Position numbers and translations under genes: made by a program. From Chiloscyllium plagiosum (taxonomy: Eukaryota): a DNA stretch of 44,481 bases. The notes under the pieces are model-generated. The model searched no databases and was not told the origin of the DNA. It worked only from the letters and a program-made list of their open reading frames with translations. The stretch lies in NCBI RefSeq assembly GCF_004010195.1, contig NC_057749.1:17971069-18015549 (forward strand), given 5' to 3'. Shown here piece after piece: positions 206 to 44,385 of the stretch; position 1 is the first letter of the stretch; every line of letters begins with the position of its first letter.

Positions 206-410
206 GAGAGTGAGCTAACGTTCCAATTCTAGATGACTCTTCACCAGAGCTGATGTGAAGTGGTGAAGAGCTCTGGATGAGAGTGGAAACGTTAGCTCAC
301 ACTCTCTCTCACTCTCTCTCACTCTCCATGGATACTGCGTGACCTGCTGTGATTTCCAGCATTGGTTGGTTTCAGTACAAGTTCCAGCATCTGCAGCAAT
401 TCGCTCCAAC
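206..410 (+). mobile_element. Old Penelope-like fold-back insertion with decayed hammerhead
   Basis: Inverted arms gagagtgagctaacgttcca / tggaaacgttagctcacactctc; family tail gacctgctg...ttccagcatctgcag. Minus arm reads CTGGTGA-agagtcatctagaatt-GGAACGTTA, a decayed core. Confidence 0.6.
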
Positions 411-899
411 AACTGATGGGGTTTTCAAACATGTTTAAACCTTCGATATAGACTTGGTCCAGACTGCCTTGGTTAACTGCCTGGGGATCCCTCCACTTCC
501 ACCTCAGGCCTGTGATGGGCTACAGTCAAAGGTCAAACCATCCTTGCCCCAATGGTTGCCTTTGAACTGTGACCCTTGCTGGTTGTCGCTCACCCATGGA
601 TGACTGAGCAGCTGAAGGAACTGCAAATTATATCTCTGTGCTCCTCAACCCACCAACCTCCGGGCACAGACACCGGGTGTAGGATCTCCCCAAGTCTGAG
701 TCAGAGTGGAGGTATGATCAAGGCTCTGTGTACAAACCTGGCTAACATTCTGTCCCTGTGTGCACTGACATTGGTGCAGTGTAACTCAGGGAGAAAGAGA
801 TGAGTGAGAGTGATTGTCATACAGTCCTTTTGATCCACGGTTTCAGTCCAGTGTGTCAGTGCCAACTTTCTACTGGGTCATTTCACCGAGTCCTGCTCA

Positions 900-1070
900 G
901 TCACCTTATCCCCAGAGCCCAACACATCCATCCTTTTCAGATAATTTCACAGTTCCTTTCTGAAAGCTTGGAGGGAACCTACCTCGTCCACAGTCTCTGA
1001 CAGCACATTCCAGACCCTCACTACTTGTTGCGTGAGAAAATTTTCCCTCGTGTTCTCTGCTGTTTCTTTT
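900..1070 (-). mobile_element. Old CR1 LINE 3' fragment
   Basis: Minus ORF ends RENFLTQQVVRVWNVLSETVDEVGSLQAFRKEL, the typical CR1 ORF2 C-terminus. Confidence 0.75.
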
Positions 1071-1216
1071 AACAAAAGGATGAGGTGAGAGTGACAGCCC
1101 TTGACATCAAGGCCACAGTTCACCGAGTGCGGCATCAAAGAGCCCAAACAAAACTGGAGTTAGTGGGAGTCAGGGGGAAAGCTGTTTGGAGAAATATCTG
1201 GCACACGGGGGGGGGG

Positions 1217-1313
1217 GTCAAGATTAGAGTGGTGCTGGAAAAGCACAGCAGGTCAGGCAGCATCCGAGGAGCAGGAAAATCGACATTTCAGGCAAAAGCC
1301 CTTCATCAGGAAT
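1217..1313 (-). mobile_element. Single-arm Penelope-like insert with hammerhead motif
   Basis: Minus strand: attc-CTGATGA-a-gggc-tttt-gcct-GAAA-t-GTC-gatt, followed by the family sequence gatgctgcctgacctgctgtgcttttccagc. It interrupts the LINE RT region. Confidence 0.8.
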
Positions 1314-1484
1314 GATGGGACGATGGTCATGGTTATTAAAGGTCAGTTATCCCAGCTCCAGGACAGCTCTGCAGGATTCCCTCAGGGTAGTGTGCTAGGC
1401 CCAACCATCTTCAGCTGCTTCATCAATGACCTTCCCTCCATCATAAGGTCAGAAGTGGATGTTCACTGATGGTTGCACAATGTT

Positions 1485-1595
1485 AGAATCATTGAGTGTC
1501 ACAGCTGTTCGGCCCATCAAGTCTGTACTGTGAAAACAGACACTATTAGCGACACTAGCCTGATTGGCCCCACTTACCTGCACTAACCCTTGAGC
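1485..1595 (-). mobile_element. Short CR1/SINE-type 3' tail inserted in the LINE
   Basis: tagaatcat...ttcggcccatc tail signature, flanked by the direct repeat caatgtt (1478-1484, 1596-1602). Confidence 0.55.
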
Positions 1596-1832
1596 CAATG
1601 TTGCTTCTGCACCCCACTGGCGACTGCTCAGATACTGAAGCAGGTCTGTGTCCAAATGCAGCAAGACCCAGAGAATATCCAGGCTGGGGCTGCCATGGGC
1701 AATTCATGCCACACAATTACTAAACATTGTCTATCTCCAGTAGGAGGGAATTAACAGACCTGCTTAACATTCAATGACGTTATCATCACTGAATCCTCCA
1801 CTATTAACATCCTGGTCATTACTAGTGACCAG

Positions 1833-2115
1833 TGGTCAGAGGTTAGCGCTGCTGCCTCACAGCACGAGTGAAATCAGGTTCCTGGGTTCAATTCCAGCCT
1901 TGGGCGACTGTCTGTGTGGAGTTTGTACATTCTCCCCGTATCTGTATGGGTTTCCTCCCACAGTCCAAAGAGTGCAGGTAAGGGTGGATTGGCCAGGGTA
2001 AAAGCCCAATGCAAGGTTATGGGAGTTTGGGGTGGGTGCTCTTCGGATGGGCAGTGCAGATGTGATGGGCTGAATGGCCTCTTTCTGCACAGTAGAGATT
2101 CTATTATCCTTCTAT
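1833..2115 (+). mobile_element. tRNA-derived V-SINE (HE1-like)
   Basis: Head ggttagcgctgctgcctcacagc, B-box ggttcaattcc, V-domain ctgtgtggagtttgtacattctcccc, CR1-like tail. Confidence 0.85.
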
Positions 2116-2779
2116 GAGGAGCTGAACTGCACTAGCCACATAAACACACTGTCCACACGGTACAAGTCAGGAGTGTGATGGAATACTCCCCACTTGCCCT
2201 GGATGGGGGCAGCTCCAACAACACTCAAGAAGCTCGACACCATCCAGGACAAAGCAGCCACTTGATTGACACCACACCCATAAAGATCCGCTCCCTCACA
2301 ACCAACACTCACTAGCAACGGTGTGTATCATCTCCAAGATGCACTGAGGAAATTCACCAAAACTCCTCAGACAGCACCTTCCAAACCCATGCCCACTTCC
2401 ATCTAGAAGGGCAAGGGCAGCAGGTACATGGTAACACCACCCCTTGCGAGTTACCCTCCGAGCCATTCACCATCCTGACTTGGAAATATATCGCCGTTCC
2501 TTCAGTGTCGCTGGGGCACAATCCTGGAATTCCCTCCCTCAGGGCATTGTGAGTCTACCCACAGCACATGGACTGCAGCGGTTCAAGAAGGGAGCTTACC
2601 CCCACCTTCTCAAGGGGCAACTAGGGACAGAGTGATAAATGCTGGACCCAGACAGCGATGCCCATGCCCCATGAGTAAATTTAAAAAATACTTCTAACTT
2701 TCAGTCTCCATCTTTTTGTAAATGGGAACAATTTCTCCTAACTGACACTGTCCGGACCCTATCTTGAATCCACATGACT

Positions 2780-3246
2780 GTGTATATGTATACCCACACA
2801 CACACATACATATAGGTACACACACACAGACACATACAGATACATACACACATACACACAGACACATGCACGCACACACACATACAGGCACACACACACA
2901 GACACATGCAGGCACACGCGCGCGCACAGACACACGCGCACGCACACACACATATACAGGCACACGTGCACACATACATGCATGCACACACACACACATA
3001 CAGGCACACACACATACATACAGGCACACGCATGCACATACATACAGGCGCATGCACACACGCACACACATACATACAGGCACACACGCACACACACAGA
3101 CAGACACACACTTGTGCATGTACATACAAATGCACAGGTGTACCGATGCACATGCATGTGTTGCATACACACATATCCAGGCACATACATGTGCATATTC
3201 AGACACATACATACAGACACACGCATGCATATATATTGGTACACAT
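2780..3246. repeat. Degenerate (CA)n-rich microsatellite
   Basis: CA/CATA/CAGG/CGCA interspersed repeats; these explain the His/Thr and Val/Cys ORFs. Confidence 0.95.
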
Positions 3247-4327
3247 GTTCAGCTAAATGTTTATGAGTGCCATCCTTGGATCCTAATGAGCTATATCCTT
3301 TCAAAGTTGCACTAATGATGTTGTATTAGCTTTGTTGAGAATGAGACACCCTGGTGAGTTTGTCCACAGACAGTGCTGTGAACTCCAGACACAATCAATT
3401 TCACTGGGTAATTAGGTTTCCCAGCTATTAATGATATCTGTTGTTAGCTTTGATTAGAGTGAGGACTGATGTAAGGAACAATGTGACTTTTTCTTGCCTT
3501 TTATTTTGAAGTGATTATTGATAATGAGCAGCAATAAAGCTGGACAGGCCCCTTTGAGATGGTTGCGAGATGAATTGTCAATTCCTGTTGTAAGAATCCT
3601 GAAACATTCAGAATAGAACTGAGCTGCGGGAACTGTTACTGATGTGTTCTGCAAAATGCAAGTATAATTCAACGCACAAACCTGTTGACCTAAAGCAGTG
3701 TCTAACTTCTCTGTTTAGGAATCAGTGACTGCGTGAGGCTCTGACAAGCTGACGAAAGGACTGAAGAAGCTGTTAACCGGTAGGAAAGAAACACTTCCTT
3801 CATTTAAGCATTTTCACATGGCTTGTTTCTTCGTAACACTTACAGGTTTTGAAAGGTTTATGACCAAGGTGGAGGAATGAGGTTTCCATTTGCTGCAGTG
3901 GTCACTTTGGGGTGTTCTTCTGCATCTTTTTAACAGTGTTCAAGATGAGAAGGTGGGATCCGTAGAAAAGAAAGATTAATGGAAAGCAAGCTTCCAATTG
4001 ACCTTTTTACCTTCCTACTATAGACCCATTTACCTCACACCTGCCTCTCCCAATATTATCCCCATCGACAAAAACTCAGTGACAAGTCAAACCTTACAGC
4101 GTGGTGAATCCAATACTGAAAAAAGGGAGGAAGAGTCTGGAGGGAGAGGGGGTTTGGGATGGTGTTTGTGTGTTCAGAGCAGCTACATCGGTGGAAGTAG
4201 TTATTGGCCAACGTCAAGTTTGCATTTTTGCAAACCAACCACCAGGGGAAGCAAATTAGTGACGACCGGAGATGGGACATTGAACTGAAGAGGTTCCAGA
4301 ACAACCAAGAGACTGAGAGCAAAAGCC

Positions 4328-4602
4328 AAAAAACAGACAACCCAGAATGAACTGTGGATGCTGTGAATCAGGGAAGGTAAACAGAAGTTGCTGGAAAAGC
4401 TCAGCAGGTCTGGCAGCATCTGTAAAGAGAAATCAGAGTTAACGTTTCAGGTCCTGGTTCTGAGGAAGGTTCTCCAGACCCGAAACATTAACTCTGATTT
4501 CTCTCCGAAGATGCTGCCAGACCTGCTGAGCTTTTCCAGAAACTTCTGTTTACCTTCCCGGATTCACAGCATCCACAGTTCATTCTGGGTCGTCTGTTTT
4601 TT
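4328..4602 (+). mobile_element. Penelope-like fold-back element (~125-bp inverted arms) with central hammerhead
   Basis: aaaaaacagacaacccagaatgaactgtggatgctgtgaatc... mirrors ...gattcacagcatccacagttcattctgggtcgtctgtttttt. Centre: gtt-CTGAGGA-a-ggttc-tcca-gaccc-GAAAC-ATT-aac (4457-4492). Confidence 0.85.
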
Positions 4603-6783: not shown

Positions 6784-6785
6784 GT

Positions 6786-6822
<37 letters not shown>

Positions 6823-7169: not shown

Positions 7170-7220
<51 letters not shown>

Positions 7221-7226
7221 AAGAGA
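6784..7226. repeat. (TG)n/(GA)n compound microsatellite with internal gap
   Basis: Seen directly. Confidence 0.95.
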
Positions 7227-7269
7227 GATATCATTCAGTATCTGAGAGCAGTCTCCTTGACCACTGTAC

Positions 7270-9631: not shown

Positions 9632-10061
9632 CATCAAACACCCATCGGACAGAGACTGCACAGGGTTAGATACAGAGTAAAACTCCCTCTACACCGTTCC
9701 CCCATCAAATGCTCCCCAAACAGGGACTGCATGGGGTTAGATACAGAGTAAACCTCCCTCTACACTGTCCCCATCAAACACTCCCCAGACGGGGATAGCA
9801 TGGGGTTAGATACAGAGTAAGCCTCCCTCTACACTGTCCCCATCAAACACTCCCAGGACAGGGACAGCACAGGGTTAGATACAGAGTAAAGCTCCCTCTA
9901 CACTGTCCCCCATCGAACACTCCCCAGACAGGGATAGCACGGGGTTAGATACAGAGTAAAACTCCCTCTACACTGTCCCCATCAAACACTCCCCAGACAG
10001 GGACAGCACAGGGTTAGATACAGAGTAAAGCTACCTCTACACTGTCCCCATCAAACACTCC
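9632..10061. repeat. Minisatellite, about 6 copies of a 69-71 bp unit
   Basis: The GGTTAGATACAGAGTAAA motif recurs near 9664, 9735, 9804, 9873, 9943 and 10012. Confidence 0.95.
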
Positions 10062-13618: not shown

Positions 13619-14789
13619 TGAGTGGGCAATATTCCAGGTGAGGCATCAGGCAGCAGAGTTGTGCTCAGGGCCTGTTCTCAGCATGAGCATGAGGTAGAGG
13701 GCTGTGTCTGTGGACACAGACTGGGAGGACCGTCACTGGGCTACCAGAGGTTTATTAACCCTCAGCCAAGGCCAATGCCAGTTCCTGTGGAAGCTGGAGA
13801 TCTGAAACAAAACAGAGACAGTACTGGAGAAACTGAGCAAGACTGGCAGCGGCTGCAGAGAGAGAGAAACAGAGTTAGAATCCAGTAACCCTTCGTCCAA
13901 ACTCCATGTGAACAAACTGGGCCTTTGGAATCCAAAAGCACCAGGGTTCTACTCCCAAACCATGGAAAGCTAAAATAACCAAAGGCCCTGTCTGAGGTCA
14001 GCCTACCCAGCACCCACTGCAGGTGACAGCTCTTTCTCATCATTCCCAAGGCAGTTGGTTAAACTGAAGTAAGCTCTTATGAAATTTCGTTGATTGGTGG
14101 AGGTGTTTGTGGGAACACTGTTGTCTTGACAGAGCAGCCATTATCTCCTGTCATGTATCACACGGACGTCCATCACTCCCCATTGGCACTAACTCCATCA
14201 AATAAAGTCTTCTTGGACACCTCGTTAGAATTAGTGTAGTCATGAGCTTGCTTTACAAGAGGAAAGAATAGCAAATTACCATGCTGCCTAGACTCAGTGC
14301 TGTCCATTAATCGATGTTATGACCTGTCAGACTTCCAGGCTGAGCAGCAATGACTCAAACCAACACACCCCAGGTGTTGGATGTGTCAATATCAGCGATT
14401 CCGCATTAAAATCATCGGCAGTAGCTATTTATCTTTAGGCTAAAGCTGTGGAGAATGAGCTGTTACTAATCACTGATCATTTGCAGAAGATTGAGCAGAA
14501 AGCTTTCACTGGCACAGTTGTAAAGCAGCAGGACTTAAAGAGTGGTTGGCACATTTTCACAGGCTTCGCTTATCCCTGGGACATTCAGAGTTGTCATTCC
14601 GAGTGAAGTGCAGGCATTGGCAGTGAGTATGAAGTGACGACTTTGAAGTTGATGCATAAACAAGGAGACTGTGTGGTGTACAGTTATGTTCTGACTGTGT
14701 GCAGTCTGCTCAAACTGGGCTCCAGGCAAGACAGCACTCAGGCTGTGTCACCCTCACAGACTGAGCTGTAAAGACAGAATTTCTGATGT

Positions 14790-15880
14790 TTAGTTTTTTT
14801 TATTCATAGGATGTGGATGTCACTGGCTGGGCCAGCATTTATTGCCTGTCCCTAGTTGCTCTTGACTGTCTTCTTGTACCACTGCAGACCCTGTTCTGAA
14901 GGTAGTCCATGCTGTTAGAGAGGGAGTTCCAGGGTTTTGACCCAGTGACAGTGAACGAACAGCGATATATTTCCAAGTCAGGATGGGGAGGGGCTTGGAG
15001 GGGACCTTGCAGGGGGTGATGTTCCCATGTACCTGCTGCCCTTGTCCATGAGGCAGTAGATGTTGCAGGTTTGGAGGGTGCTGTTGGAGGAGCCAACAGT
15101 GCATCTTGTGACGGTACACGCTGCTGTGACTGAATACCAATCGTGAAGGGAGTGAATGTTGAAGGTGCTGGATGTGGTACCAATCAAGCGGCTGCTTTGT
15201 CCTGGATGGTGTCGAACTTCTTGAGTGTTGTTGGAGCTGCCCCCATCCAGAATCACATTCCTGACTTGTGCCTTGGAGATTTGCGGACAGGCTTTGAGGT
15301 GTCAGGAGATGAGTTACTTGCTGCAGGATTCCTAGTCTCTGACCTGTTCTTGTAGCTGTTGTGTTTATGTGGTGAGTCCAGTTAAGTTTCTGGTCAACAG
15401 TTACTCCTGGGTGTTGCTAATGCCTGGGAGGGGGTTCAGTGATGGCAAAACCATTGAATGCCAAAGGACAAAGGTTAGATTCTCTTTTGAAGAAGATGGT
15501 CATAGCCTGGCATTTGTGTTGTGAATGTTACTTGTCCAGATCTTGCTGCATTTGGACACGGGCTGCTTCAGTATCTGAGGAGTGGTGAACAGTGCTGACC
15601 ATTGTGTAATCATCAGTGAACATCCCCACTTCTGACCTTATAATGGAAGGAAGGTCATTGTTGAAACAACTGAAGATGGTTGGGCCTAGGACACTCTCCT
15701 GAGGAACTCCTGCAGAGGTGTCCTGGAGCTGAGGTGACTGACCCTCCAACAACCACCACCATCTTCCTCTGTCTGTGTCAGGTCTGACTCCTCCCAGCAG
15801 AGAGTTTTCCCACTGATTCCCATCGATTCCAGTTTTGCGAGGACTCCCTGATGTCAAGGGCAGTCACTCATCTTAACCTC
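14790..15880 (-). mobile_element. CR1/L2-group LINE (second family) 3' portion
   Basis: SAGVPQESVLGPTIFSCFNNDLPSIIRSEVGMFTDDYT; GSKPWNSL; A-rich tail. Homologous to 1075-2690. Confidence 0.9.
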
Positions 15881-16261
15881 CATCACAGTCACTGTAACGC
15901 TGTAAGCAGTATGGGAGACAGCTTTACACAGCAAGATCCCATGGACAATAATGGGATAATGACCAATCATTTGTTTTTGAAAAATAAAAAAAATAGCTAT
16001 TGACTCAGGACCCAGGTTGGGAGTGCCAATGGGTGGAGAGCATCTTGCATTTTATTTAGATCATGTCATATTTTTTTCCAATGGCAAAACATTGCATTTC
16101 TGTCGTGTCTTTAATACAGTAAGATACCCCAATATGCCTCACAGGGTCATTATCAAACATATTCTGACACTTTGCAATAAAAGGAGAAATTGGCTGTGAT
16201 GACCCAAGCCATAGGCAACCATGATGGTTCGACACAGTATCCGAAAAGCGGGATAGAGAGG

Positions 16262-26724: not shown

Positions 26725-27268
26725 TCGGAACAGTCTGTGGCCCCTCAGGAGGAAGAACCTCATTTAGAGCGCACTGAGTGAAAACAGTAAACAATTTGTA
26801 TTAACTTGAAAATACAACTACAAAAACTACCAAATCAAAACTTCTAACAACTACTTTTACAATGAAGCAACAGACATCACAATAAAGAGGAGACCTTCCC
26901 CCTTGTCCACAGGGGGGCGCTCATATTACCCACTAACCCCATGGATCCTTCTAGCCGAAGCCACACCCCAAACCCAGACAAAACAAAGTACAAAGAAGTT
27001 ACACACGTCTTACAACAAGCAAATTAAAAGTGGGCATTCAACCCATCCCATCCATCCTTTGACCTGAGGCAGTCCTGGTTAACAAATAGACACCCCACCC
27101 CCCAACCCTGTACTAAGAAAGAGAAACGAAAAGGGAATGATAGAAAAGCAAAGGATTATGGGAGGGGAGAAAGAAGGGGGAGGAGAGAGGAAGAAAGAGG
27201 AAAATAAAGGGAGACCCCTCATATTAAAAAGACAAAATCAGGTAAACCAGGCAAAGTACAGAAAAGAA

Positions 27269-27528
27269 GTTAAAAAATCACACAAAACCACGTTATAGTC
27301 CAACAGGTTTAATTGGAAGCACTAGCTTTCGGAGCGTCACTCCTTCACCAGGTGGTAGTGGAGGACACTATTGTAAGACACACAATCATGTCCTCCACAA
27401 CCACCTGATGAAGGAGCGACGCTCCGAAAGCTAGTGCTTCCAATTAAACCTGTTGGACTATAACGTGGTTTTGTGTGATTTTTAACATTGTCCACCCCAG
27501 TCCAACACCGGCATCTCCAAATTATGAC
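27269..27528 (+). mobile_element. Penelope-like fold-back element inserted in the L1 inter-ORF spacer
   Basis: ~97-bp inverted arms (27269-27366 / 27390-27486) plus a 42-bp tail; approximate TSD tacagaaa(a)gaa at 27257-27268 and 27529-27539. Confidence 0.9.
27402..27436 (+). ncRNA. Minimal type I hammerhead ribozyme motif
   Basis: cac-CTGATGA-a-ggagc-gac-gctcc-GAAA-gc-TA-gtg. Core intact, 5-bp stem II, palindromic AGCT stem III, cac/gtg stem I. Confidence 0.75.
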
Positions 27529-27581
27529 TACAGAAAGAAACAAAGTGACCACGATGGTCCATATTATTTGAGCCAGCCAGT

Positions 27582-28798: not shown

Positions 28799-28799
28799 T

Positions 28800-30270
28800 A
28801 TCATACAGTCATTGAGTCATCGAGATGTACAACACGGAAACAGACCCTTCTGTTCAACCCATCCATGCCAACCAGATATCCAAAATTAATCTAGTCCCAT
28901 CTGCCAGCACTTGGTCCATATCCCTCCAAACCCCTCCTATTCATATACCCATCCAAATGCCTCTTAAATGTTGCAATTGTACCAGCCTCCACCACTTCCT
29001 CTCACAGCTCATATCATACCCGTACCACGCTCTGTGTGAAAAGGTTGTCCTTTAGGCTTCTTTTATATCTTTCCCCTCTCACCCTAAAACTATGCCCTCT
29101 ACTTCTGGACTGCCCTACCCCAGGGAAAAGATCTTGTCTATTTACCCTATCCATGTCCCTCAGGAGTTTATAAACCTCTATAAGGTCACCCCTCAGCCTC
29201 TGACGCTCCAGGGAAAATAGCCCCAGCCTATTCAGCCTCTCCCTGTAGCTCAAACCCTGGCAACATCCTTGTAAATCTTTTCTGAACCCTTTCAACTTTC
29301 AGATCATCCTTCCGATAGGAAAGAGACCAGAAATGCACATAATATTCCAACAGTGGCCTAACCAACTTCCTGTACAGCTGCAACATGACCTCCCAACTCC
29401 TGTACTGAATGTTTCTGACCAGTAAAGGAAAGCATACCAAACGTCTTCACTATCCTATCTACCTGCGACTCCACTTTCAAGGAGCTAGGAACCTGCACTC
29501 CAAGGTCTATCTGTTCAGCAACACTCCCTAGGACCTTACCATTAAGTGTATAAGGACCATCTGATTCAGATCCTGTTGTAATCTGAGGTAACCTTCTTTG
29601 CTGTCCACTACTCCTCCAATTTTGGTGTCATCTGCAAACTTACTAACTGTACCGCTTATGCTCGCATCCAAATCATTTATATAAATGATGAAAAGCAGTG
29701 GACCCAGCACCGATCCTTGTGGCACACCACTGGCCACAGGTCTCCAGTCTGAAAAACAACCTCCACCACCACCCTCTATCTTCTACCTTTGAGCCAGTTC
29801 TATATCGAAATGGATGGTTCTCCCTGTATTCCGTGAGATCTAACCTTGCTAACCAGTCTCCCATGGGGAACCTTGTCGAACGCCTTACTGAAGTCCATAT
29901 AGATCACACCTACTGCTCTGCCCTCATCAATCCTCTTTATTACTTCTTCAAAAAACTCAATCAAGTTTGTAAGACATGATTTCCCACGCACAAAGGCATG
30001 TTGACTATCCCTAATCGGTCCTTGCCTTTCCAATTACATGTACATCCTGTCCCTCAGGATTCCCTCCAACAACCACCACCAAGTCAGGCTCACCGGTCTA
30101 TAGTTTCCATGGATTGTCCTTACCACCTTCTTAAACAGTGGCACCATGTTAACTACCAGTCTTCTGGCACCTCACCTGCGACTATCGATGATACAAATAT
30201 CTCAGTAAAGGGCCCAGCAATCACTAGATTCCCACAGAGTTCTAAGGTGCACCTGATCAGGTCCGGGGGA
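28800..30270 (-). mobile_element. Younger HER1-like CR1 nested in the host CR1
   Basis: New 3' tail at 28800-28850; [41 protein letters not shown]. Confidence 0.92.
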
Positions 30271-30814: not shown

Positions 30815-30910
30815 TCTGGCTGGGCCAGCATTTACTGCACATCCCTAATTGAGGTTAAGAGTCAAACACGTTGCTATGGGTCTGGAGTCACGGGTCAGGA
30901 TGATAGATTA
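30815..30910 (-). mobile_element. SINE 3' fragment (same family as 10555-10963)
   Basis: ctggctgggccagcattta...ccctaatt...gttaagagtcaa...ggtctggagtcac is the reverse complement of the 10845-10930 region. Confidence 0.7.
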
Positions 30911-30913
30911 CCT

Positions 30914-32080
30914 TTTATATAAATGATTTGGATGTGAGTATAAGAGGTATAGTTAGTAAGTTTGCAGATGACACCAAAATTGGAGGTGTAGTGAACAGCA
31001 AAGAAGGTTACCTCACATTACAACAGGATCTTGACCAGATGGGCCAATGGACTGAGAAGTGGCAGGTGGAGTTTAATTCAGATAAATGCGAGGTGCTGCA
31101 TTTTGGAAAAGCAAATCTTAGCAGGACTTATACACTTAATGGTAAGGTTCTGGGGAGTGTTGCTGAACAAAGAGACCTTGGAGTGCAGGTTCACAGCTCC
31201 TTGAAAGTGGAGTCGCAAGTAGATAGGATAGTGAAGAAGGTGTTTGGTATGCTTTCCTTTATTGGTCAGGAGTTGGGAGGTCATGTTGCGGCTGTACAGG
31301 ACATTGGTTAGGCCACTGTTGGAATATTGCGTGCAATTCTGGTCTCCTTCCTATTGGAAAGATGTTGGGAAGCTTGAAAGGGTTCAGAAAAGATTTACAT
31401 GGACGTTGTCAGGGTTGGGAGATTTGAGCTATAGGGAGAGGCTGAACAGGCTGGGGCTGTTTTCCCTGGAGCGTCGGAGGCTGGCTGAGGGGTGACCTTA
31501 TAGAGGTTTATAAAATCATGAGGAGCATGGATAGGGTAAATAGATAAGATATTTTCTCTGGGGTCAGGGAGTCCAGCACTAGAGGGCGTAGGCTTAGGGT
31601 GAGAGAAGAAAGATATATGCAGAGGGTGGTAAATGTATGGAATGAGCTGCCAGAGGATGTGGTGAATGCTGGTACAATGCTTAAAAATGTGTTGCTGGAA
31701 AAGCACAGAAGGTCAGGCAGCATCTAAGGAACAGGAGAATCGACGTTTTGGGCATAAGCCCTTCTTCAGGAATCCCTGAAGAAGGGCTTATGCCCAAAAT
31801 GTCGATTGTCCTGTTCCTTTGATGCTGCCTGACCTTCTGCGCTTTTCCAGCAACATATTTTTAAGCTCTGATCTCCAGCATCTGCAGTCCTCACTTTCTC
31901 CCAGTGCTGGTACAATTGCAACATTTAAGAGGCATTTGGATGGGTATATGAATAGGAAGGGTTTGGAGGGAAATGGGCCAGGTGCTGGCAGGTGGGACTA
32001 GATTGGGTTGGGATCTCTGGTCAGTGTGGACAGGTTGGACCGAAGGGTCTGTTTCTGTGCTGTACATCTCTATGACTCTT
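30914..32080 (+). mobile_element. HER1-like CR1 3' portion, interrupted by a Penelope-like element
   Basis: [21 protein letters not shown], tail ctctatgactc. Confidence 0.93.
31679..31904 (+). mobile_element. Penelope-like fold-back element with 12-bp TSD
   Basis: Arms 31679-31770 / 31775-31866 plus tail; TSD tgctggtacaat at 31667-31678 and 31905-31916; core CTGAAGA-a-gggc-ttat-gccc-AAAA (mutated). Confidence 0.92.
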
Positions 32081-32851: not shown

Positions 32852-33490
32852 GCACAGGCCCTTTACTGAGAGTCTCCCAACAATGATGGAATCTGAATAA
32901 ATACACTCAGGATACAGCACATCCCCCTGCTGTCTCAGTCAGTCCCTTGCTGGCCAATATTTTATTGCCCGATGATCTCTCCTACCCAGACTCTCTGTCT
33001 CTCTTCCATTACTGCCAACTGTGTCATTAATAAAGCTGAGAACCCAGAAAGGAAATCAATTGTATCCTGTTTTCTCAGCATCAAATCTCCGCACTGCCCT
33101 GCCTGATTAGCAAAGACTGCTCGCAAATGTGGCTGGGACCAAGCGAATCAATAATCTATAAATAATACCCACAATTACAAAGGATCTAGTGCATTGTCTG
33201 TCTCCCATTCTTTGGAAATTGATGATGAGTAATGTCCTCACCTAAATCTGATGTCAAGGAATGTCTACACTTCAGACTGGGATTATACTCCTTGGGATGT
33301 CAAAGAATGGAGGGGAGATCTTACAGAATCATACACAATTCTGAAGGGAATCGATAGGATAGGTGCGGGGCGGGGCGGGGGGGGGATTGTTTCCACTGGT
33401 GGATGAAATTAGAACCAGAGGACATCACCTCAAAATAAAGGGGGAGCAGCTTTCGGACTGAGTTGAGGAAGAACGTCTTCAGCATTGGAA

Positions 33491-33650
33491 AGTGTGGCAC
33501 TGGAAACGCACAGCAGGAATTCCTGATGAGGGGCTTATCCCCGAAACGTCGATCCTCCTGCTCCTCGGATGCTGCCTGACCTGCTGAGCTTTTCCAGCAC
33601 CACACTCTCGACTCTGGCTCTCCAGGATCTGCAGCCCTCACTTTACCCTG
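33491..33650 (+). mobile_element. Penelope-like insert with truncated left arm
   Basis: gtgtggcactggaaacgcacagcagg mirrors cctgctgagcttttccagcaccacac; family tail atctgcagccctcacttt. Confidence 0.8.
33515..33556 (+). ncRNA. Minimal hammerhead ribozyme motif, canonical core
   Basis: tc-CTGATGA-GGGG-cttat-CCCC-GAAAC-GTC-ga; GUC cleavage triplet ends at 33550; stem I is weak or bulged. Confidence 0.75.
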
Positions 33651-36950: not shown

Positions 36951-36957
36951 CAGCTAA

Positions 36958-39900
36958 CCAGTGAGAGTCAGTGTGTGTGGGACTGTACCCCAGTGAGAGT
37001 CAGTGTGTGTGTGGGACTATACCCCAGTGAGAGTCAGTGTGTGTGGGACTGTACCCNNNNNNNNNNNNNNNNNNNNNNNNNNNNNNNNNNNNNNNNNGTC
37101 AGTGTGTGTGGGACTGTACCCCAGTGAGAGTCAGTGTTTGTGTGGGACTGTACCCCAGTGAGAGTCAGTGTGTGGGGGACTGTACCCCAGTGAGAATCAG
37201 TGTGTGGGGGACTGTACCCCAGTGAGAATCAGTGTGTGGGGGACTGTACCCCAGTGAGAATCAGTGTGTGGGGGACTGTACCCCAGTGAGAATCAGTGTG
37301 TGGGGGACTGTACCCCAGTGAGAATCAGTGTGTGGGGGACTGTACCCCAGTGAGAATCAGTGTGTGGGGGACTGTACCCCAGTGAGAATCAGTGTGTGGG
37401 GGACTGTACCCCAGTGAGAATCAGTGTGTGGGGGACTGTACCCCAGTGAGAATCAGTGTGTGGGGGACTGTACCCCAGTGAGAATCAGTGTGTGGGGGAC
37501 TGTACCCCAGTGAGAATCAGTGTGTGGGGGACTGTACCCCAGTGAGAATCAGTGTGTGGGGGACTGTACCCCAGTGAGAATCAGTGTGTGGGGGACTGTA
37601 CCCCAGTGAGAGTCAGTGTGTGGGGGACTGTACCCCAGTGAGAATCAGTGTGTGGGGGACTGTACCCCAGTAAGAGTCAGTGTGTGTGGGACTGTACCCC
37701 AGTGAGAGTCAGTGTGTGGGAGACTGTACCCCAGTGAGAGTCAGTGTGTGTTAGGGACTGTACCCCAGTGAGAGCCAGTGTATGTGGGACTGTATCCCAG
37801 TGAGAGTCAGTGTGTGTGTGACTGTACTCCAGTGAGAGTCAGTGTGTGGGGAACTGTACCCCAGTGAGAGTCAGTATGTGTGAGACTATACCCCAGTGAG
37901 GGTCAGTGTGTGTATGTGTGACTGTACCCCAGTGAGAGTCAGTGTGTGTCTGAGAGTGTACCCCAGTGAGAATCAGCATGTGTGTGTGTGTGGCACTGTA
38001 CCCTAGTGAGGATCAGTGTGTGTGGTGGGACTGTACACAGTGAGGGTCAGTGTGTGTAAGATTGTACCCCAATGAGAGTCAGTATATGTGGGACTGTACC
38101 CCAGTGAGGGTCAGTGTGTGTGGGACTGTACACCAGTGATTGTCTGTGTGTGTGTGCGGGTTGTACCCCAGTGAGAGTCAGTGTGTGTGTGGGACTTTCC
38201 CCCAGTGACAGTCAGTGCATGTGTGGGACTGTTCCCCCAGTGAGGGTCAGTGTGTGTGGGACTGTCCCCCAGTGACAGTCAGTGCATGTGTGAGACTGTA
38301 CCCCAGTGAGGGTCAGTGTGTGTGTGTGTGTGAGACTGTACCCCAGTAAGAGTCAGTGTGCGTGTCAGACCGTACTCCAGTGAGCGTCAGTGTGTGTGTG
38401 TGGAACTGTATCCCAGTGAGAGTCAGTGTGTGTGTGGGGGGGGACTGTACCCCGTGAGAGTCAGTGTGTGTGGGATTGTACCCCAGTGAGAGTCAGTGTG
38501 CGTGTGGGACCGTACTCCAGTGAGCGTCAGTGTGTGTGTGGGGGACTGTACCCCAGTGAGAGTCAGTGTGTGTGGGACTGTACCCAAGTGAGAGTCAGTG
38601 TTTGTGTGGGACTGTACCCCAGTTAGAGTCAGTGTGTGCGGACTGTACCCTGTGAGAGTCAGTGTATGTGGGACTATATCCCAGTGAGAGTCAGTGTGCG
38701 AGTGGGACTGTATCTCAGTGAGAGTCAGTGTGTGTGTGGGACTGTACCCCAGTGTGAGTCAGTGTGTGTGTGGACTGTCCCCCCAGTGAGGGTCAGTGTG
38801 TGTGTGGGACTGTACCCCAGTCAGAGTCAATGTTGTGGAACAGTACCCCAGTGAGAGTCAGTGTGTGTGGGACTGTACCCCAGTCAGAGTCAATGTTGTG
38901 GAACAGTACCCCAGTGAGAGTCAGTGAGTCTGGGACTGTACCCAAGTGAGAGTCAGTTTGTGGGGGACTGTACCTCAGTGACAGTCAGTGTGTGGGAAAC
39001 TGTATCCCAGTGAGAGTCAGTGTGTGTGAGACTATACCCCAGTGAGGGTCCGTGTGTGTATGTGTGACTGTACCCCAGTGAGGGTCAGTGTGTGTGGGAT
39101 TGTACCCCAGTGAGAGTCAGTGTGTGCGGACTGTACCCCGTGAGAGCCAGTGTTTGTGTGGGACTGTACCCCAGTGAGAGTCAGTGTGTGTGTGAGACTG
39201 TACTCCAGTGAGAGTCAGTGTGTGGGGAACTGTGCCCCAGTGAGAGTCAGTGTGTGTGTGACTGTACTCCAGTGAGAGTCACTGTGTGTATGTGTGACTG
39301 TACCCCAGTGAGAGTCAGAGTGTGTCTGGGAGTGTACCCCAGTGAGAATCAGTGTGTGTGTGTGTATGTGGCACTGTACCCTAGTGAGGGTCAGTGTATG
39401 TGTGGGACTGTACCCTAGTGAGAGTCAGTCTGTGTAAGATTGTACCCCAGTGAGAGTCAGTGTGTGTGGGACTGTACCCCAGTGTGGGTCAGTGTATGTG
39501 TGGGACTGTACCCTAGTGAGAGTCAGTGTGTGTAAGATTGTACCCCAGTGAGAGTCAGTGTGTGTGGGACTGTACCCCAGTGAGGGTCAGTGTGTGTGGG
39601 ACTGTACACCAGTGATGGTCTGTGTGCGGGTTTTACCCCAGTGAGAGTCAGCGGGTATGTGGGGCTTTGCCCCAGTGAGAGTCAGTTTGTGTGTGGGACT
39701 GTCCCCCAGTGAGAGTCAGTGTGTGAAGACTGTACCCCAGTAGGTGTCAGTGTGTGTGTGGGAATTTCCCCCAGTGACAGTCAGTGCATGTGTGAGACTG
39801 TACCCCAGTGAGGGTCAGTGTGTGTGGGACTGCCCCCCAGTGACAGTCACTGCATGTGTGGGACTGTCCCCCAGTGAGGGTCAGTGTGTGTGTGGGACTG

Positions 39901-41062
39901 TATCTCAGTGAGAGTCAGTGTGTGTGTGTGGGACTGTACCCCAGTGTGAGTCAGTGTGTGTGTGGACTGTCCCCCCAGTGAGGGTCAGTGTGTGTGTGGG
40001 ACTGTCCCCCAGTGAGAGTCAGTGTGTGGGGGACTGTACCCCAGTGAGAGTCAGTGTTTGTGGGGGACTGTACCCCAGTGAGAATCAGTGTGTGGGGGAC
40101 TGTACCCCAGTGAGAGTCGGTGTGTGTGGGACTGTACCCCAGTAAGAGTCAGTGAGTCTGGGACTGTACCCAAGTGAGAGTCAGTGTGTGGGGGACTGTA
40201 CCCCAGTGACAGTCAGTGTGTGGGGAACTGTATCCCAGTGAGAGTCAGTGTGTGTGAGACTATACCCCAGTGAGGGTCCATGTGTGTATGTGTGACTGTA
40301 CCCCAGTGAGGGTCAGTGTGTGTGGGATTGTACCCAATGAGAGCCAGTGTATGTGAGACTGTATCCCAGTGAGAGTCAGTGTGTGTGTGACTGTACTCCA
40401 GTGAGAGTTAGTGTGTGGGGAACTGTACCCCAGTGAGAGTCAGTGTGTGTGAGACTATACCCCAGTGAGGGTCAGTGTGTGTATGTGTGACTGTACCCCA
40501 GTGAGAGTCAGTGTGTGTGTGGCACTGTACCCTAGTGAGAGTCAGTGTGTGTGGTGGGACTGTACACAGTGAGAGCCAGTGTGTGTGAACTGTACCCCAG
40601 TGAGGGTCAGTGTATGTGTGTGACTGTACACCAGTGATGGTCTGTGTGTGTGTGTGCAGGTTGTACCCCAGTGAGAGTCAGTGTGTATGTGGGGCTGTGC
40701 CCCAGTGAGAGTTAGTTTGTGTGTGGGACTGTATCTCAGTGAGAGTCAGTGTGTGTGTGGGACTGTACCCCAGTAGGTGTCAGTGTGTGTGTGGGACTTT
40801 CCCCCAGTGACAGTCAGTGCATGTGTGGGACTGTTCCCCCAGTGAGGGTCAGTGTGTGTGGGACTGTCCCCCAGTGACAGTCGGTGCATGTGTGAGACTG
40901 TACCCCAGTGAGGGTCAGTGTGTGTGTGGGACTGTATCCCAGTGAGAGTCAGTGCATGTGTGGGACTGTCCCCCAGTGAGGGTCAGTGTGTGTGTGGGAC
41001 TGTCCCCCAGTGACAGTCAGTGCATGTGTGGGACTGTCCCCTGTGTGTGTGGGACTGTATCC
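36958..41062. repeat. ~4.1-kb minisatellite array, ~32-bp unit
   Basis: Continuous GGGACTGTACCCCAGTGAGAGTCAGTGTGTGT variants; homogeneous block at ~37180-37610. Confidence 0.97.
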
Positions 41063-41269
41063 TGATGTAGACAAATCCTTTCTGCTTTGAAGCTCAGTTG
41101 GAGTAAAAGAGAACTAAACACAGTGAGTTTGTGGAGTTGTGTTGCCCCCACCTAGATATTTGATCATATTCAAATTCCATATGTTGGAGTTTAAGCAAAT
41201 AACTTACAAAGTGACAAAAATCTGGTTTCATCTTTGATAATTGTCACATTAAAATGCTCTTTTCAGTTG

Positions 41270-41430
41270 AATAATCACAACATGTGGCTCTGGAAAAGCC
41301 GAGCAGGTCAGACAGCATCTGAGCAGCAGGGGAGTCGATGTTTCAGGTATAAGCCCATCATCAGGACTGTGCTTTTCCAGCAACACACGTTTTGATTCTG
41401 ATCTCCAGCATCTGCAGTCCTCACTTTCTC
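41270..41430 (+). mobile_element. Penelope-like insert with 11-bp TSD and decayed hammerhead on the minus arm
   Basis: TSD cttttcagttg at 41259-41269 and 41431-41441; minus gtc-CTGATGA-tgggcttatacct-GAAAC-ATC-gac; tail ctgatctccagcatctgcagtcctcactttctc. Confidence 0.85.
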
Positions 41431-41554
41431 CTTTTCAGTTGTATACACCATTAAACAAAGGTGAAAATTTGGCTACATCTTCTTTCAACTTAGGAAATCC
41501 TACTTCTAAAATAGGATGGGCGTATTGTTGAATATGATCAGAAGCAATTAATGT

Positions 41555-42095
41555 ATTATCTGTATATCTACCCAGCAATGTTTACTGTCGCGTCTATATA
41601 TCTGTCAAGCAGTGTGTGCATATCTATCTCTATATAACAGGCAATACTAGCATATCCAGCCTGCAGTGTGTATAAATATGTTATTATTATATATAATATA
41701 AAAAATGTAATATTGGTATATCTGGCCAGAAGTGTCTATAAATAAGTCTGTATATCTGTACAGAAATGGCTGTATATCTGTCAAGCAATGCCTGTATATA
41801 TTTCCAGTCCTGTTGAATATCTGTATTCGACAATGGCTTTTGTATGTGTTAATATTATGTGTATATCTGTCCGGCAGTGTCTGTTTATCACTCCATCAGA
41901 GTCTGTATATATGTCAATCAATATCTTTTTATCTGACCAGCAATATTTATAAGTTTGTCCAGTAGAGTGAGTGTGCCTGACCAGCAGTATCTGTGTATAT
42001 CTGCACACCGGTGTCTGTATATCTGTCCAACATGAGCGGTATATATGACCAGCAATAACTGCACACCTGACCAGCAGTATTTGTATGTCTGTCTT
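41555..42095. repeat. Degenerate ~20-25 bp tandem repeat (TATATCTGTCCAGCAGT-like)
   Basis: tatatctg...ccagca motifs recur throughout. Confidence 0.65.
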
Positions 42096-42097
42096 TC

Positions 42098-43635
42098 GAG
42101 TTATAGTCATACAGTGTGGAAAATGACCCTTTGGCTCAACTAGTCCATACTGACCATGTCCCCAAACCAAGCTAGTCCCACTTGCCTGTGCTTGGCCCAT
42201 ATCCCTCTAAACCTTTCCTATTCATGAATGTATCCAAATGTTTTTACATTTTGTAACTGTACCTGTATCCACTACTCCATCTAGAAGCTCATTCCACACA
42301 TAAATCATTCTCTGTGTAAAAGAATTGCCCATCATGTCCTTATTAAATCTTTCACCTTTCACTTTTGCTTTGAATACCCCTTTCCCAGGGAAAAGACACT
42401 TGCTATTCACCCTATCCATGCCCCTCATGGTTTTATAAATCTCTATAAGGTCACCCCTCACCTCCGACGCTCCAGGGGAAAATGTCCCAGCCTATCCAGC
42501 CTATCTTTCTAATTCAGCACCTCCAGTCCCAGGAACATCCTGCTAAATCTCTTCTGAACCCTCTCCAATTTAATAATATCCTTGCTGTATCTGGGAGACC
42601 AGAACTGTAGACAGTATTCCAGAAGAGGCCTCACTAACATCCCGTACAAACATCCCAGCTCTTATACCCAAAGCTCTGAGCAGTGAAGGTAAGCGTGCTA
42701 AATACCTTCTCAACCACCCTGCCTACATGTGACACAAATTCCAAAGAATTATATCTCTGAACCCCTAGATCTCCCTGTTGTACAGCACAGCCAGGGCCCT
42801 ACCATTCATGGTATAAGCCCTGCCCTCATTTCTCTTACCAAAATGCAATACGCCACATTTATCCAAATTAAACTCCTCAACCCATTGACCCAGTTGATAA
42901 AGATTTCTTTGTAACCTTAGATCGTTTTCTTCACTGTCCACTATGCCACCAATTTTGATGTCATTCACAATCTTACTAACCACGCCTCCAATATTCACAT
43001 CCAAATCATTTATATAAATGACAAACAAATGAGGACCCAGAATTGATCCCTGCGGAATACTGCTGGTTACAGGCCTCCGCCACCACCCTCTGTCTCCTGA
43101 CATTATGTCAATTTTGTATCCAACTGGCAAGCCCACCATGTGATAGAACTTTCCTAATTGGTCCACTATGGGGAACCTTGTAAAAGGCTTTACTAAAGTC
43201 CACGTCGACAACATCTACCGCTCTGCCCTCATCAATGTTTTTGGTTACTTCCTCAAAAAGCTCAGTCAGGTTTGAGAGGCACGATCTCCCTCACACAAAA
43301 CCATATTGACTCTCCCTCATCAATTCTTGCCTTTCCAATAACTTACCCACCACTGGCATCAGGTTCACTGGTCTATAGTTGCCAGGTTTCTCTTCCCAGC
43401 CTTTCTTAAATAAAGGCACAACATCAGCCACCCTCCAGTCATCTGGTACCTCACCTGTGGTTATTGATGATACAAATTGTTTTGCTAAGAGCCCCATAAT
43501 GTGCTCCCTAACCTCTCAGACTGTCCTGGGATACACCTGATCAGGTCCTGGAGATTTACCCACCTTCATGTTTTCTAAGACCCCCATCACTTGCTGTTCT
43601 GTAATGTCAACTGCTCTCAAAACATCAATATTTAA
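42098..43635 (-). mobile_element. CR1 LINE 3' 1.5 kb
   Basis: DWRVADVVPLFKKG...PGNYRPVNL, SIPQGSILGP, RGDLIEIYK. Confidence 0.93.
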
Positions 43636-43646
43636 TTGAAACAAAA

Positions 43647-43934
43647 ACAGAGTTAATGTTTCAGGTCCAGTGACCTTTCCTCAGAACCGGACCCGAAACA
43701 TTAACTCTGTTTCTCTCTCCACAGATGGTGCCAGACCAGCTGAGCTTTTCTGTCCTTGTTTCTGATTTCCAGCATCCGCAGTTAGAGTCATAGAGTCATA
43801 GAGATGTACAGCATGGAAACAGACCCTTCGGTCCAACAAACATTAACTCTGTTTCTCTCTCCACAGATGGTGCCAGACCAGCTGAGCTTTTCCAGCAACC
43901 TCTGTCCTTGTTTCTGATTTCCAGCATCCGCAGT
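43647..43934 (+). mobile_element. Penelope-like element with short fold-back, partly tandem-duplicated
   Basis: Minus gtt-CTGAGGA-a-aggtc-actg-gacct-GAAAC-ATT-aac (43652-43687); same subfamily as 4328-4602. Confidence 0.8.
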
Positions 43935-44030
43935 TAGAGTCATAGAGTCATAGAGATGTACAGCATGGAAACAGACCCTTCGGTCCAACCCATCCATGCC
44001 GACCAGATATCCCAACCTAATCTAGTCCCA

Positions 44031-44385
44031 TAAATAAAAGCAAATTACTGCGGATGCTGGAATCTGAAACCAAAAGAGAAAATGCTGGAAAAATCTCAAC
44101 AGGTCTGGCAGCATCTGTAAGGAGAGAAAAAGCTGATGTTTCGAGTCTAATTGACCCTTTGTCAAAGCCTTTGGTTTCAGATCCCAGCATCTGCAGTATT
44201 TTGCTTTTATCCAGTGTTTAACCCACTGCCCTCTCTCTCCCAGGAAGACTACCCTGAAGAAGGACTGCTCTTCTCTCCGACAGCTTTGACAAAGGGTCAG
44301 TTAGACTCGAAACGTCAGCTCTTTTCTCTCCTTACAGATGCTGCCAGACTTGCTGAGATTTTCCAGCATTTTCCCTTTTGGTTCC
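44031..44385. mobile_element. Rearranged Penelope-like fold-back element with 12-bp TSD
   Basis: TSD aatctagtccca at 44019-44030 and 44386-44397; ~44068-44168 is inverted at ~44283-44383, and ~44034-44074 is inverted at ~44171-44210. Confidence 0.88.
44282..44320 (+). ncRNA. Minimal hammerhead ribozyme, U3-A8 core variant
   Basis: agct-TTGACAA-a-gggtc-agtta-gactc-GAAAC-GTC-agct; stems I and II pair, and stem III is the palindrome ACGT. Confidence 0.72.

Follow-up and report, generated by a model that had tools for sequence, protein, structure and literature searches.

Insertions of one superfamily in the window

The window analysed here is a stretch of 44,481 nucleotides from the shark Chiloscyllium plagiosum (assembly GCF_004010195.1, contig NC_057749.1, positions 17,971,069 to 18,015,549 of the forward strand). 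It consists of repeat-rich, vertebrate-like DNA with five N runs, decayed reverse transcriptase (RT) fragments of long interspersed elements (LINEs) and CR1-type 3' ends, and it harbors short insertions with minimal hammerhead ribozyme motifs that very probably represent the 3' ends of Penelope-like elements (PLEs). Self-BLAST and an nhmmer profile built from the units of lineages A and B delineate ten insertions of one superfamily, i.e., one per 4.3 kb, which total about 2.1 kb and make up 4.9% of the non-N window sequence (42.7 kb). Named after their positions, the copies belong to lineages A (1217, 31679, 33491 and 41270), B1 (4328), B2 (43647), B3 (44031), C (27269) and D (206). They are listed below with their target-site duplications (TSDs).

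197..416, plus strand: lineage D insertion (206 copy); TSD CCAACAACTGA at 197-207 and 406-416; inverted arms 206-230 / 280-304; (CTCTCTCACT)3 at 296-325; body and tail about 326-405
1226..1315, minus strand: lineage A single unit (1217 copy) without inverted arm and without tail; hammerhead 1275-1315 (-)
4328..4602, plus strand: lineage B1 full fold-back; arms 4328-4453 / 4477-4602, 126 nt, 93% complementary
13782..13898, minus strand: decayed B-like unit; nhmmer E 1e-10, profile positions 7-122
27257..27541, plus strand: lineage C insertion (27269 copy); arms 27273-27374 / 27382-27483, 102 nt, 95% complementary; tail 27484-27528
31667..31916, plus strand: lineage A full fold-back (31679 copy); TSD TGCTGGTACAAT (31667/31905); arms 31679-31770 / 31775-31866, 92 nt, 95%; tail 31867-31904
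33488..33650, plus strand: lineage A unit (33491 copy); short inverted arm 33488-33517 with distal body sequence only; tail about 33613-33648
41259..41441, plus strand: lineage A insertion (41270 copy); TSD CTTTTCAGTTG (41259/41431); inverted arm 41273-41368, tail-less
43644..43989, plus strand: lineage B2 insertion (43647 copy); inverted arm 43644-43668; hammerhead 43648-43690 (-), covariance model 41.1 bits
44019..44397, minus strand: lineage B3 insertion (44031 copy); TSD AATCTAGTCCCA (44019/44386); on the minus strand, complete unit and tail 44034-44168 with hammerhead 44128-44171; on the plus strand, tail fragment 44170-44210, 72-nt leader 44211-44282 and tail-less unit 44283-44383

The original prediction had named nine sites, at about one per 5 kb. 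All nine carry insertions of related sequence, and the estimated density is close to that of the window and to the one per 3.1 kb found in 139 kb of other DNA; the tenth, decayed copy at 13782-13898 (-) had been overlooked. The layout it described, inverted arms followed by an unpaired tail, holds for most copies, exceptions including 1217, which has a single arm, and 4328, which has tails on both. Clean TSDs of 11-12 bp are indeed present, at four insertions instead of the three claimed, and an imperfect one is found at a fifth. In addition, a 31-nt box lying 3' of the hammerhead (GATGCTGCCTGACCTGCTGAGCTTTTCCAGC) occurs eight times in the window at up to three mismatches, where none is expected.

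Hammerhead motifs

The motif has the form of the minimal type I hammerhead known from PLEs: helix I has 3-5 bp and is followed by a core (C/U)UGAN(G/A)A, usually one extra base, a helix II with 4-6 bp and GAAA; a palindrome of 4 nt without a loop (ACGU or AGCU) then takes the place of helix III, and H17 comes next. A loose pattern, CTGANGA-N6-30-GAAA, is only mildly enriched, with ten matches in the window, six of them inside elements, against 3.67 +/- 1.94 in shuffled sequence, where 2 of 100 shuffles reach ten. A strict descriptor demands pairing of core positions 3 and 8, permits a single extra base, and further calls for a helix II with 4 bp or more, GAAA, positions 15.2 and 16.2 able to pair, U16.1 and H17. 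It matches four times and in three lineages, at 1282-1309 (-), 27405-27433 (+), 33523-33550 (+) and 44286-44316 (+), against a mean of 0.009 in 1000 shuffles, none of which reaches four. A covariance model of A/B type, built from 11 genomic A and B instances, finds nine window copies at E < 1e-6, four of these being training rows; it misses the C copy because MAFFT could not align C and E in register with A/B. Searches of the kind that had been proposed with the original prediction, by descriptor and by covariance model, recover the motif.

Among the lineage A copies, 33491 has a canonical intact hammerhead (33517-33557, 52.9 bits, including the strict motif at 33523-33550), and the 1217 unit scores 53.4 bits, its strict motif having a U.G at 15.2-16.2. 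The 31679 fold-back carries two hammerheads, 31735-31775 (-) and 31770-31810 (+), at 52.9 and 36.7 bits, and the 41270 copy one at 41330-41370 (-), at 40.3 bits. A single decayed core lies in the 23-nt centre of the 4328 fold-back (4454-4496, +; 31.0 bits). The intact strict hammerhead of the 27269 copy reads CTGATGA-a-GGAGC-gac-GCTCC-GAAAGCTA, and an intact hammerhead lies in the plus-strand unit of the 44031 copy (44280-44323). The CTGANGA core named in the original prediction does not apply to 44031, which has TTGACAA (UUGACAA), a U3-A8 variant of the C3-G8 pair, and 206 has no credible hammerhead, the covariance model giving only weak matches there (210-253 (-), 16.6 bits, E 0.017; 267-300 (+), 11.6 bits, E 0.6). 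No closely spaced pair of intact motifs on the same strand is present in the window.

Genome comparisons were made with the 3.56 Gb assembly from which the window comes, and loci elsewhere in it bear L-numbers. Among 82 A-type matches from the window and these loci, the helix III word is ACGT in 49, ACAT or ATGT in 25 and another word in 8, which points to CpG transition as the main decay route. Most window copies are dead relics whose hammerheads were damaged mainly by such CpG decay.

Conservation of the core and covariation of the helices

Five lineages with a readable motif can be compared, including a lineage E known from another locus.

Lineage A: helix II GGGC/GCCC; helix I 2 bp + 1-2 bp; helix III ACGU; position 7 U or A; H17 C
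Lineage B2: helix II AGGUC/GACCU; helix I GGUU/AACU; helix III ACAU in the window copy, probably ACGU to judge from the B1 inverted arm; position 7 G; H17 U
Lineage B3: helix II GGGUC/GACUC; helix I AGCU/AGCU; helix III ACGU; position 7 C; H17 C
Lineage C: helix II GGAGC/GCUCC; helix I CAC/GUG; helix III AGCU; position 7 U; H17 A
Lineage E: helix II AUUACC/GGUGAU; helix I UCA/UGA; helix III ACGU; position 7 U; H17 C

U4, G5, A6, A9, G12-A14, A15.1 and U16.1 are invariant in all five, H17 is never G, and all four bases occur at position 7. Lineages A, B and E share the palindrome ACGU, and lineage C has AGCU instead. The window and the loci together (311,198 bases) hold 75 strict motifs, 74 of which have the extra base between A9 and 10.1. 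Over 130 model matches (120 distinct rows), standard pairs fill 85.5% of the pair cells, compared with 77.6 +/- 0.6 in shuffles, none of 500 reaching that value, and with 16-51% for slid partners; seven of the eight helix pairs change on both sides between sequences. The claim that stems differ between subfamilies while pairing is kept stood up to a consensus covariation test. Judged from sequence comparison, the predicted catalytic core is fixed while the predicted stems I, II and III co-vary across five lineages. The invariant core and the changing helices match the four features listed for PLE minimal hammerheads by Cervera and de la Pena (2014, PMC4209133), in a text that takes such features to argue against a chance origin of these motifs and that also describes the U3-A8 variant of C3-G8 in Schistosoma.

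Link to Penelope-like coding sequences

Units related to those of the window adjoin PLE coding sequence elsewhere in the genome, where the hammerhead is located about 125-135 nt from the unit 3' end and unit plus tail form the 3' end of longer PLE copies. Lineage A units at other loci are 90-93% identical to the window copy, and several run upstream into shared sequence that translates to a cysteine-rich region with a VIYCI..C..CG.LYIGETGR motif and HFNSPSHS. The 186-aa endonuclease (EN) peptide of this lineage gave 142,690 first-look candidates, of which the 150 scored all had E <= 2.9e-77. A same-strand hammerhead follows the peptide match after 30-250 nt in 11 of the 12 loci returned. At L025:2431-4452, a 674-aa open frame matches RVT_1 (31.0 bits, cut-off 29.6) and then GIY-YIG (21.4 bits, cut-off 22.6), with a lineage A unit 350 nt beyond it; L026 gives the same order and result. 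A relative of the L025 open reading frame (ORF) with 51% identity, P0022, reaches 25.0 bits for GIY-YIG, above the cut-off. Relatives number 1937 at E <= 1e-10, many of them with precomputed PF00078 and PF01541 matches. The top named relatives are uncharacterised carpet shark and ray proteins, from Chiloscyllium punctatum (81%), Rhincodon, Stegostoma and Mobula, and many invertebrates are also represented.

Similarly, two lineage B3 loci (L078 and L080) carry PLE RT/EN coding sequence about 400 nt upstream of the unit. Two further loci show hammerhead-bearing terminal repeats, i.e., pseudo-long terminal repeats (pLTRs), flanking the ORF. In L071 (B3), an inverted tail-less arm is followed by unit and tail, a leader, N-terminal and RT-coding remnants, and a second unit and tail, with a 14-of-15 direct repeat at the two ends; in L088, an inverted unit 5' and a direct unit 3' of the ORF are 93.6% identical. 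The 72-nt leader of the 44031 copy matches the sequence 3' of the upstream terminal repeat in L071 (92% over 115 nt), so that this window copy is an ORF-less derivative. The 135-nt B3 unit copies (L059-L087) are 96-98% identical to the window copy, which suggests recent activity of the U3-A8 lineage. The lineage C family yielded 44 matches from 40 scored of 2856 first-look candidates; EN-like coding sequence lies about 790 nt upstream in L044 and L048, and the homology of 28 copies is colinear, their 5' ends being spread between positions 200 and 1516, which is ordinary 5' truncation. The hammerhead of lineage E (L069:2577), distinct in helix II, is directly 3' of an ORF with a NVIYKIPC..C...YIGQ stretch; one piece of it has a weak 21-aa BLASTP match to P0022 in the GIY-YIG motif region (E 8e-4), and Pfam found nothing on its two split pieces.

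Pfam gave nothing relevant on the lineage A endonuclease peptide alone, and a PF01541 search of the genome gave one match among the 150 scored of 14,403 candidates. An ORF start or stop inside the hammerhead core was considered and dropped, the region between endonuclease and hammerhead being of low complexity and in different frames between copies. The original prediction of truncated or non-autonomous PLE products is supported, as A, B3 and C copies extend into RT and GIY-YIG ORFs, and the extension of high-identity copies that it had suggested reaches such an ORF in lineage A (L025). The alternative it had named, a DNA transposon with true terminal inverted repeats, is contradicted by the colinear homology running into RT/EN ORFs.

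Inverted arms, tails and target-site duplications

An inverted arm is present in eight of the ten window insertions and is short at 206, 33488, 41273 and 43644. The four full fold-backs would form RNA hairpins with predicted energies of -168 to -215 kcal/mol (z -20 to -31 versus shuffles), the 4328 copy having a minimum free energy of -214.7 (z -26) and the 27269 and 31679 copies each a z of -31. Most copies end in a tail of 35-45 nt that follows the direct arm and has no counterpart in the inverted one. Fourteen of 15 full inverted arms of lineage B3 stop at unit position 97-104 of 135, and the eight lineage C arms extending to the distal end all terminate at 100-114 of 150. This point is the boundary between body and tail in either lineage, i.e., the arms are tail-less. 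Direct and inverted copies of lineage C are each truncated at different inner points, which suggests that the inverted copy is made anew at each C insertion. One B3 base differs by arm, being G in 12 of 15 inverted and A in 25 of 29 direct arms; this was rejected as evidence of an inherited fold-back master, since it is most likely a bias of ranking matches against a query with A. As a side observation, the box at 33568-33598 begins with GAUGCUG, the tail (e.g., 31880-31892) has the complement CAGCAUC, and single-unit folds pair the two; compensating changes between lineages were not seen in this pairing, which may possibly form an unexplained 3' stem around two RT start sites.

Regarding the individual copies, the nhmmer match of 206 to the A/B unit profile (281-401, E 2.5e-12) shows that its body and tail are homologous to the other copies. 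The 1217 copy (1313-1227, E 4.2e-24) sits inside a decayed LINE RT frame (RVT_1 fragment 1164-1466), and no TSD was found at its edges; the 31679 copy lies within a CR1-like LINE 3' region. The imperfect TSD of 27269 (27257/27529), TACAGAAA(A)GAA, has 8 nt exact and about 12 of 13 with one indel. The 33491 copy matches at 33519-33645 (E 5.7e-32) and 33517-33480 (-) (E 0.011). In the 41270 copy, the inverted arm (41368-41273 (-), E 2.4e-24) is accompanied by a direct copy shrunk to 41367-41430, the end of body plus tail (41367-41428 (+), E 1.5e-12). The paired arms of the 44031 copy are 44090-44168 and 44283-44362. The direct 5'-truncated unit and tail of 43647 (43686-43785) abut a CR1-type (AGAGTCAT)n end, and a tandem duplication follows, with 55-nt copies spaced 142 nt and 89-nt copies spaced 152 nt, the second copy (43838-43937) being without hammerhead core. 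This duplication (43696-43989) spans the PLE unit end and the adjoining reversed CR1 tail. Its 55- and 89-nt blocks are 100% identical, and it either happened very recently or is an artefact of the assembly.

Copy number and genomic load

The 139,430 bases of flanking sequence at other loci, which were not targeted by the queries, contain 45 insertion events, i.e., one per 3.1 kb and 4.7% of bases. Single-arm copies are common among them (about 31 of the 45 events). Matches on both strands occur in about 14, at least one of which consists of two adjacent families and is no true fold-back. These flanks hold 15 strict hammerheads, and window and flank counts together give a density of about 100 per Mb. 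By rough extrapolation, if window and flanks are typical and bearing in mind that the flanks adjoin other PLE copies, the number of insertions in the 3.56 Gb genome would be of order 10^6, with about 3 x 10^5 hammerhead motifs that look intact.

Interpretation

We consider, with a probability of roughly 0.88, that the ten insertions are 3'-terminal pieces of PLEs from at least four related lineages (A, B1-B3, C and D) and that they bear a PLE-type minimal hammerhead. Each would have been produced by target-primed reverse transcription starting at the PLE 3' end. This process would leave a direct copy with its tail and, in the eight window copies with an inverted arm, an adjacent inverted tail-less copy, the whole being bracketed by the TSD. 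By analogy with published work, the inverted arm may arise when both DNA ends prime cDNA synthesis or when the RT jumps between templates, one end using an internal, tail-less start site, and the hammerhead could cut only when two copies pair through the palindrome. An inverted 5'-truncated copy adjoining the direct copy, with a 30-40 bp tail at one end, has been described for PLE insertions (Craig, 2021; PMC8557442), and in vitro work on a PLE protein (Frangieh, 2024; PMC11167929) showed that it cleaves the two strands of the target and extends both, and that it initiates reverse transcription at two neighboring internal sites which flank the tail. The hallmarks of PLE insertion are all seen here, namely 5' truncation, the adjacent inverted 5'-truncated copy and the tail at one end (with 4328 as the exception), and the tail-less inverted arms and helix I junctions agree with the two-start-site, two-strand model of the lizard PLE.

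Several observations weigh against this interpretation. The 4328 copy has tail-like ends on both arms, and a search at its edges found no TSD. Lineage D has no readable hammerhead, and G12 is replaced by A in both arms of the 31679 copy, so that its source already had a dead ribozyme core. None of the Rfam hammerhead families (type I, II, III, HH9 and HH10) matches the window at the gathering score or even at E <= 10; these models presuppose a genuine helix III or loop 3, and the minimal motifs have neither. The covariation cells count sequences and not events, in an alignment fitted to the model and across few independent lineages (five). The window holds no PLE ORF detectable by tblastn with four PLE proteins, and Pfam, run on 192 of its 204 ORFs of at least 65 aa, found only decayed RVT_1 fragments and no GIY-YIG; the 12 ORFs left out were the first four, six from the simple repeat at 2697-3312 and two that overlap the fold-back at 4328. 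The GIY-YIG score of the shark ORF itself is just under the Pfam cut-off. The long ORF copies consist of N in their middle part, so that none of the elements was read from end to end. As this applies to L024, L026, L027 and L088, open frames of 900-1200 aa there may be masking artefacts and were not taken as intact genes. Finally, in vitro activity is reported to be low for such motifs (PMC4209133), and cleavage was not required in the in vitro PLE insertion assay (PMC11167929).

The sharp 5' edge and alternative explanations

Short copies of lineages A and B share a sharp 5' edge, which coincides with the first base of helix I and precedes core position 3 by 4 nt (AUUC|CUGAUGA in A, AGCU|UUGACAA in B3, GGUU|CUGAGGA in B2). 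The edge falls at (A)GCUUUGAC, within 3 nt, in 24 of 29 B3 copies, and five of nine targeted lineage A loci begin at ATTCC or TTCC. In an untargeted set of 17 A-type motif copies, none met the test for a PLE 3' untranslated region continuing upstream, L051 being borderline. At the B3 edge, the unit is joined to four kinds of partner: unrelated flank, an inverted arm, the leader (window 44282/44283) and RT-coding DNA (L071). Short B3 copies are 96.0-100% identical to the reference L078 over the unit, compared with 88-94% for four aligned ORF-linked copies. No insertion end lies at the predicted cleavage site (after H17) among the copies read. Such a sharp edge is not described in the passages of Craig (2021; PMC8557442) drawn on here.

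These edges raise the possibility, to which we give slightly less than even odds, that the short A/B units are copies of a discrete RNA of about 130 nt starting at the first base of helix I. This RNA would be either a non-autonomous parasite similar to a short interspersed element (SINE) or the 5' end of a PLE transcript copied from the tail site of the upstream repeat, and at its 5' end the RT would join the target or jump to another template. The recurrent edge in A, B2 and B3, the closeness of short copies to L078, the single junction point shared by four partner kinds and the untargeted A-type set speak in its favor, as do the internal RT start sites (PMC11167929) and the transcription start held by the pLTR in Penelope and Chlamys (PMC8557442). 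On the other hand, matches were ranked by likeness to the queries, which favors full-length units; an identical edge would also result from a preferred RT stop or from a recombination hot spot, and lineage C displays ordinary scattered truncation. A bolder version, which we put forward tentatively, is that the hammerhead fold in A/B pinpoints the 5' end of a self-sufficient module of about 130 nt (helix I start, hammerhead, 31-nt box and tail), either a capped PLE transcript start or a SINE-like parasite, whose RNA would be the main PLE template in the genome. If so, the fold-backs and chimeric junctions would result from jumps to other templates at its 5' end, and the module would be responsible for the million or so insertions (about 5% of the DNA) and their some 3 x 10^5 intact-looking hammerheads.

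It is also conceivable, though rather doubtful, that the hammerhead is retained as a structural or protein-binding module, e.g., for recognition by the RT or protection of the RNA 5' end, without being a ribozyme in vivo. The absence of ends at the cleavage site, the 31679 copy made from a G12A source, the low activity (PMC4209133) and an insertion assay that did not need cleavage in vitro, together with a lack of RNA-seq reads ending at the site (PMC11167929), are what this would lead one to expect. Likewise, ACAU replaces ACGU in 29 of 44 young B3 units, a count biased by a query that had ACAU. Yet all catalytic-core positions, and not the helices alone, are fixed across the five lineages, U3-A8 is a compensated core pair, and the palindrome is kept through the swap from ACGU to AGCU; these are constraints expected of catalysis and they weigh against a purely structural role. 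Inverted arms with short direct repeats at the ends could recall miniature inverted-repeat elements (MITEs) of a DNA transposon with terminal inverted repeats, in which hammerhead-like words would occur by chance. This is most improbable, given that the arms are unequal, the tail is at one end only and the inner break points vary, and given the many single-arm copies, the colinear homology into RT/EN ORFs and the four strict motifs against 0.009 by chance. We grant as little credit to microRNA or other hairpin-RNA genes, despite Rfam matches to MIR6457 (4375-4555, 82.9 bits) and mir-2432 (31742-31806, 45.2 bits). Both were rejected as matches to hairpin shape only: their scores are far below the gathering values of 140 and 100, the models come from unrelated taxa, and the loci have TSDs and thousands of dispersed copies.

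Other repeats in the window

A satellite with a unit of 32-34 nt (GTCAGTGTGTGTGGGACTGTACCCCAGTGAGA) occupies 37098-41045, 36958-37056 and 20322-20890, with about 119 copies over 3.9 kb and a second array of 17 copies, both abutting N runs; the strong GC skew of these blocks is due to this satellite. Other arrays are a tandem repeat at 9632-10061 (69-nt unit, 6.2 copies, 88% matches), a G-rich 7/14-nt minisatellite (ATGGGGG) at 1-147 and a (CA)n-rich array at 2783-3111 that draws sub-threshold mir-297-type Rfam matches. Decayed RVT_1 fragments are found at 1164-1466, 15531-18152, 23140-23484, 29531-30033, 30907-31308 and 42768-43214. They have no match to PLE proteins and presumably belong to CR1/L2-type LINEs; several of these, and their 3' ends, contain inserted PLE pieces.

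Comparison with known systems

The hammerheads resemble those of the Xena, Poseidon and Neptune PLEs of fishes and of Cercyon of Schistosoma in the account of Cervera and de la Pena (PMC4209133). They share with them the type I fold with a short helix I, the extra base between A9 and 10.1, the palindromic 15.2-16.2 without loop 3, the U3-A8 variant and, in window lineages A, B3 and C, the G10.1-C11.1 pair, as well as a mostly solitary occurrence or nearby pairs on opposite strands and many sequence families per genome. They differ in being hosted by a cartilaginous fish and in having a helix II of only 4-6 bp. The load of about 100 strict motifs per Mb is far above the approximately 4,000 motifs of the coelacanth and 9,000 of Xenopus given there, the descriptors being different. 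Our literature searches turned up no description of PLE minimal hammerheads in sharks, bearing in mind that cartilaginous fishes may already be covered by the alignments of Cervera (2014). PLEs themselves are listed among whale-shark repeats (PMC8455134) and are present in all vertebrates studied (PMC4350176).

The Poseidon PLE of Anolis carolinensis (PAc, PMC11167929) similarly encodes an RT with a C-terminal GIY-YIG EN and has a hammerhead in its terminal repeat, an optional tail of 30-40 nt due to two adjacent internal RT start sites, and both target strands cut and extended. However, the PAc ORF begins inside the hammerhead, whereas the hammerhead is here downstream of EN coding sequence and a reading frame starting at its AUG runs for only 17 codons. 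Compared with the insertion pattern of Craig (2021; PMC8557442), the strong 5' truncation, the partial tandems forming pLTRs, the inverted 5'-truncated copy at the 5' side and the tail often at one end are the same; the new PLE clades described in that work lack canonical hammerheads, unlike the present elements.

Animal non-LTR retrozymes (PMC7229834; preprint 10.64898/2026.07.22.740005) are also non-coding hammerhead repeats thought to be non-autonomous PLE derivatives; they were reported in one cartilaginous fish and argued to derive from PLEs (Li, Clavereau and Pollet, 2026; 10.64898/2026.07.22.740005). The 44031 copy, which joins tail, leader and hammerhead unit without ORF, is similar to them. 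Nevertheless, retrozymes are tandem arrays yielding circular RNA, whereas the copies described here are dispersed, solitary or folded back, with TSDs; no head-to-tail array of hammerhead units is present in the window, where the roughly 150-nt duplication at 43696-43989 has no core in its second copy.

The elements are of a known kind and stand out mainly because they are so abundant and because PLE insertion has left such clean footprints in the genome. A shark-type genome saturated with PLE 3' ends, each with a minimal hammerhead and often a hairpin of 90-125 bp, contains copies that annotation easily mistakes for unknown repeats, MITEs or microRNA-like hairpins. It also offers a large natural data set for questions on PLEs, such as the role of the minimal hammerhead and the origin of the tail, the inverted copy and the sharp 5' edge.

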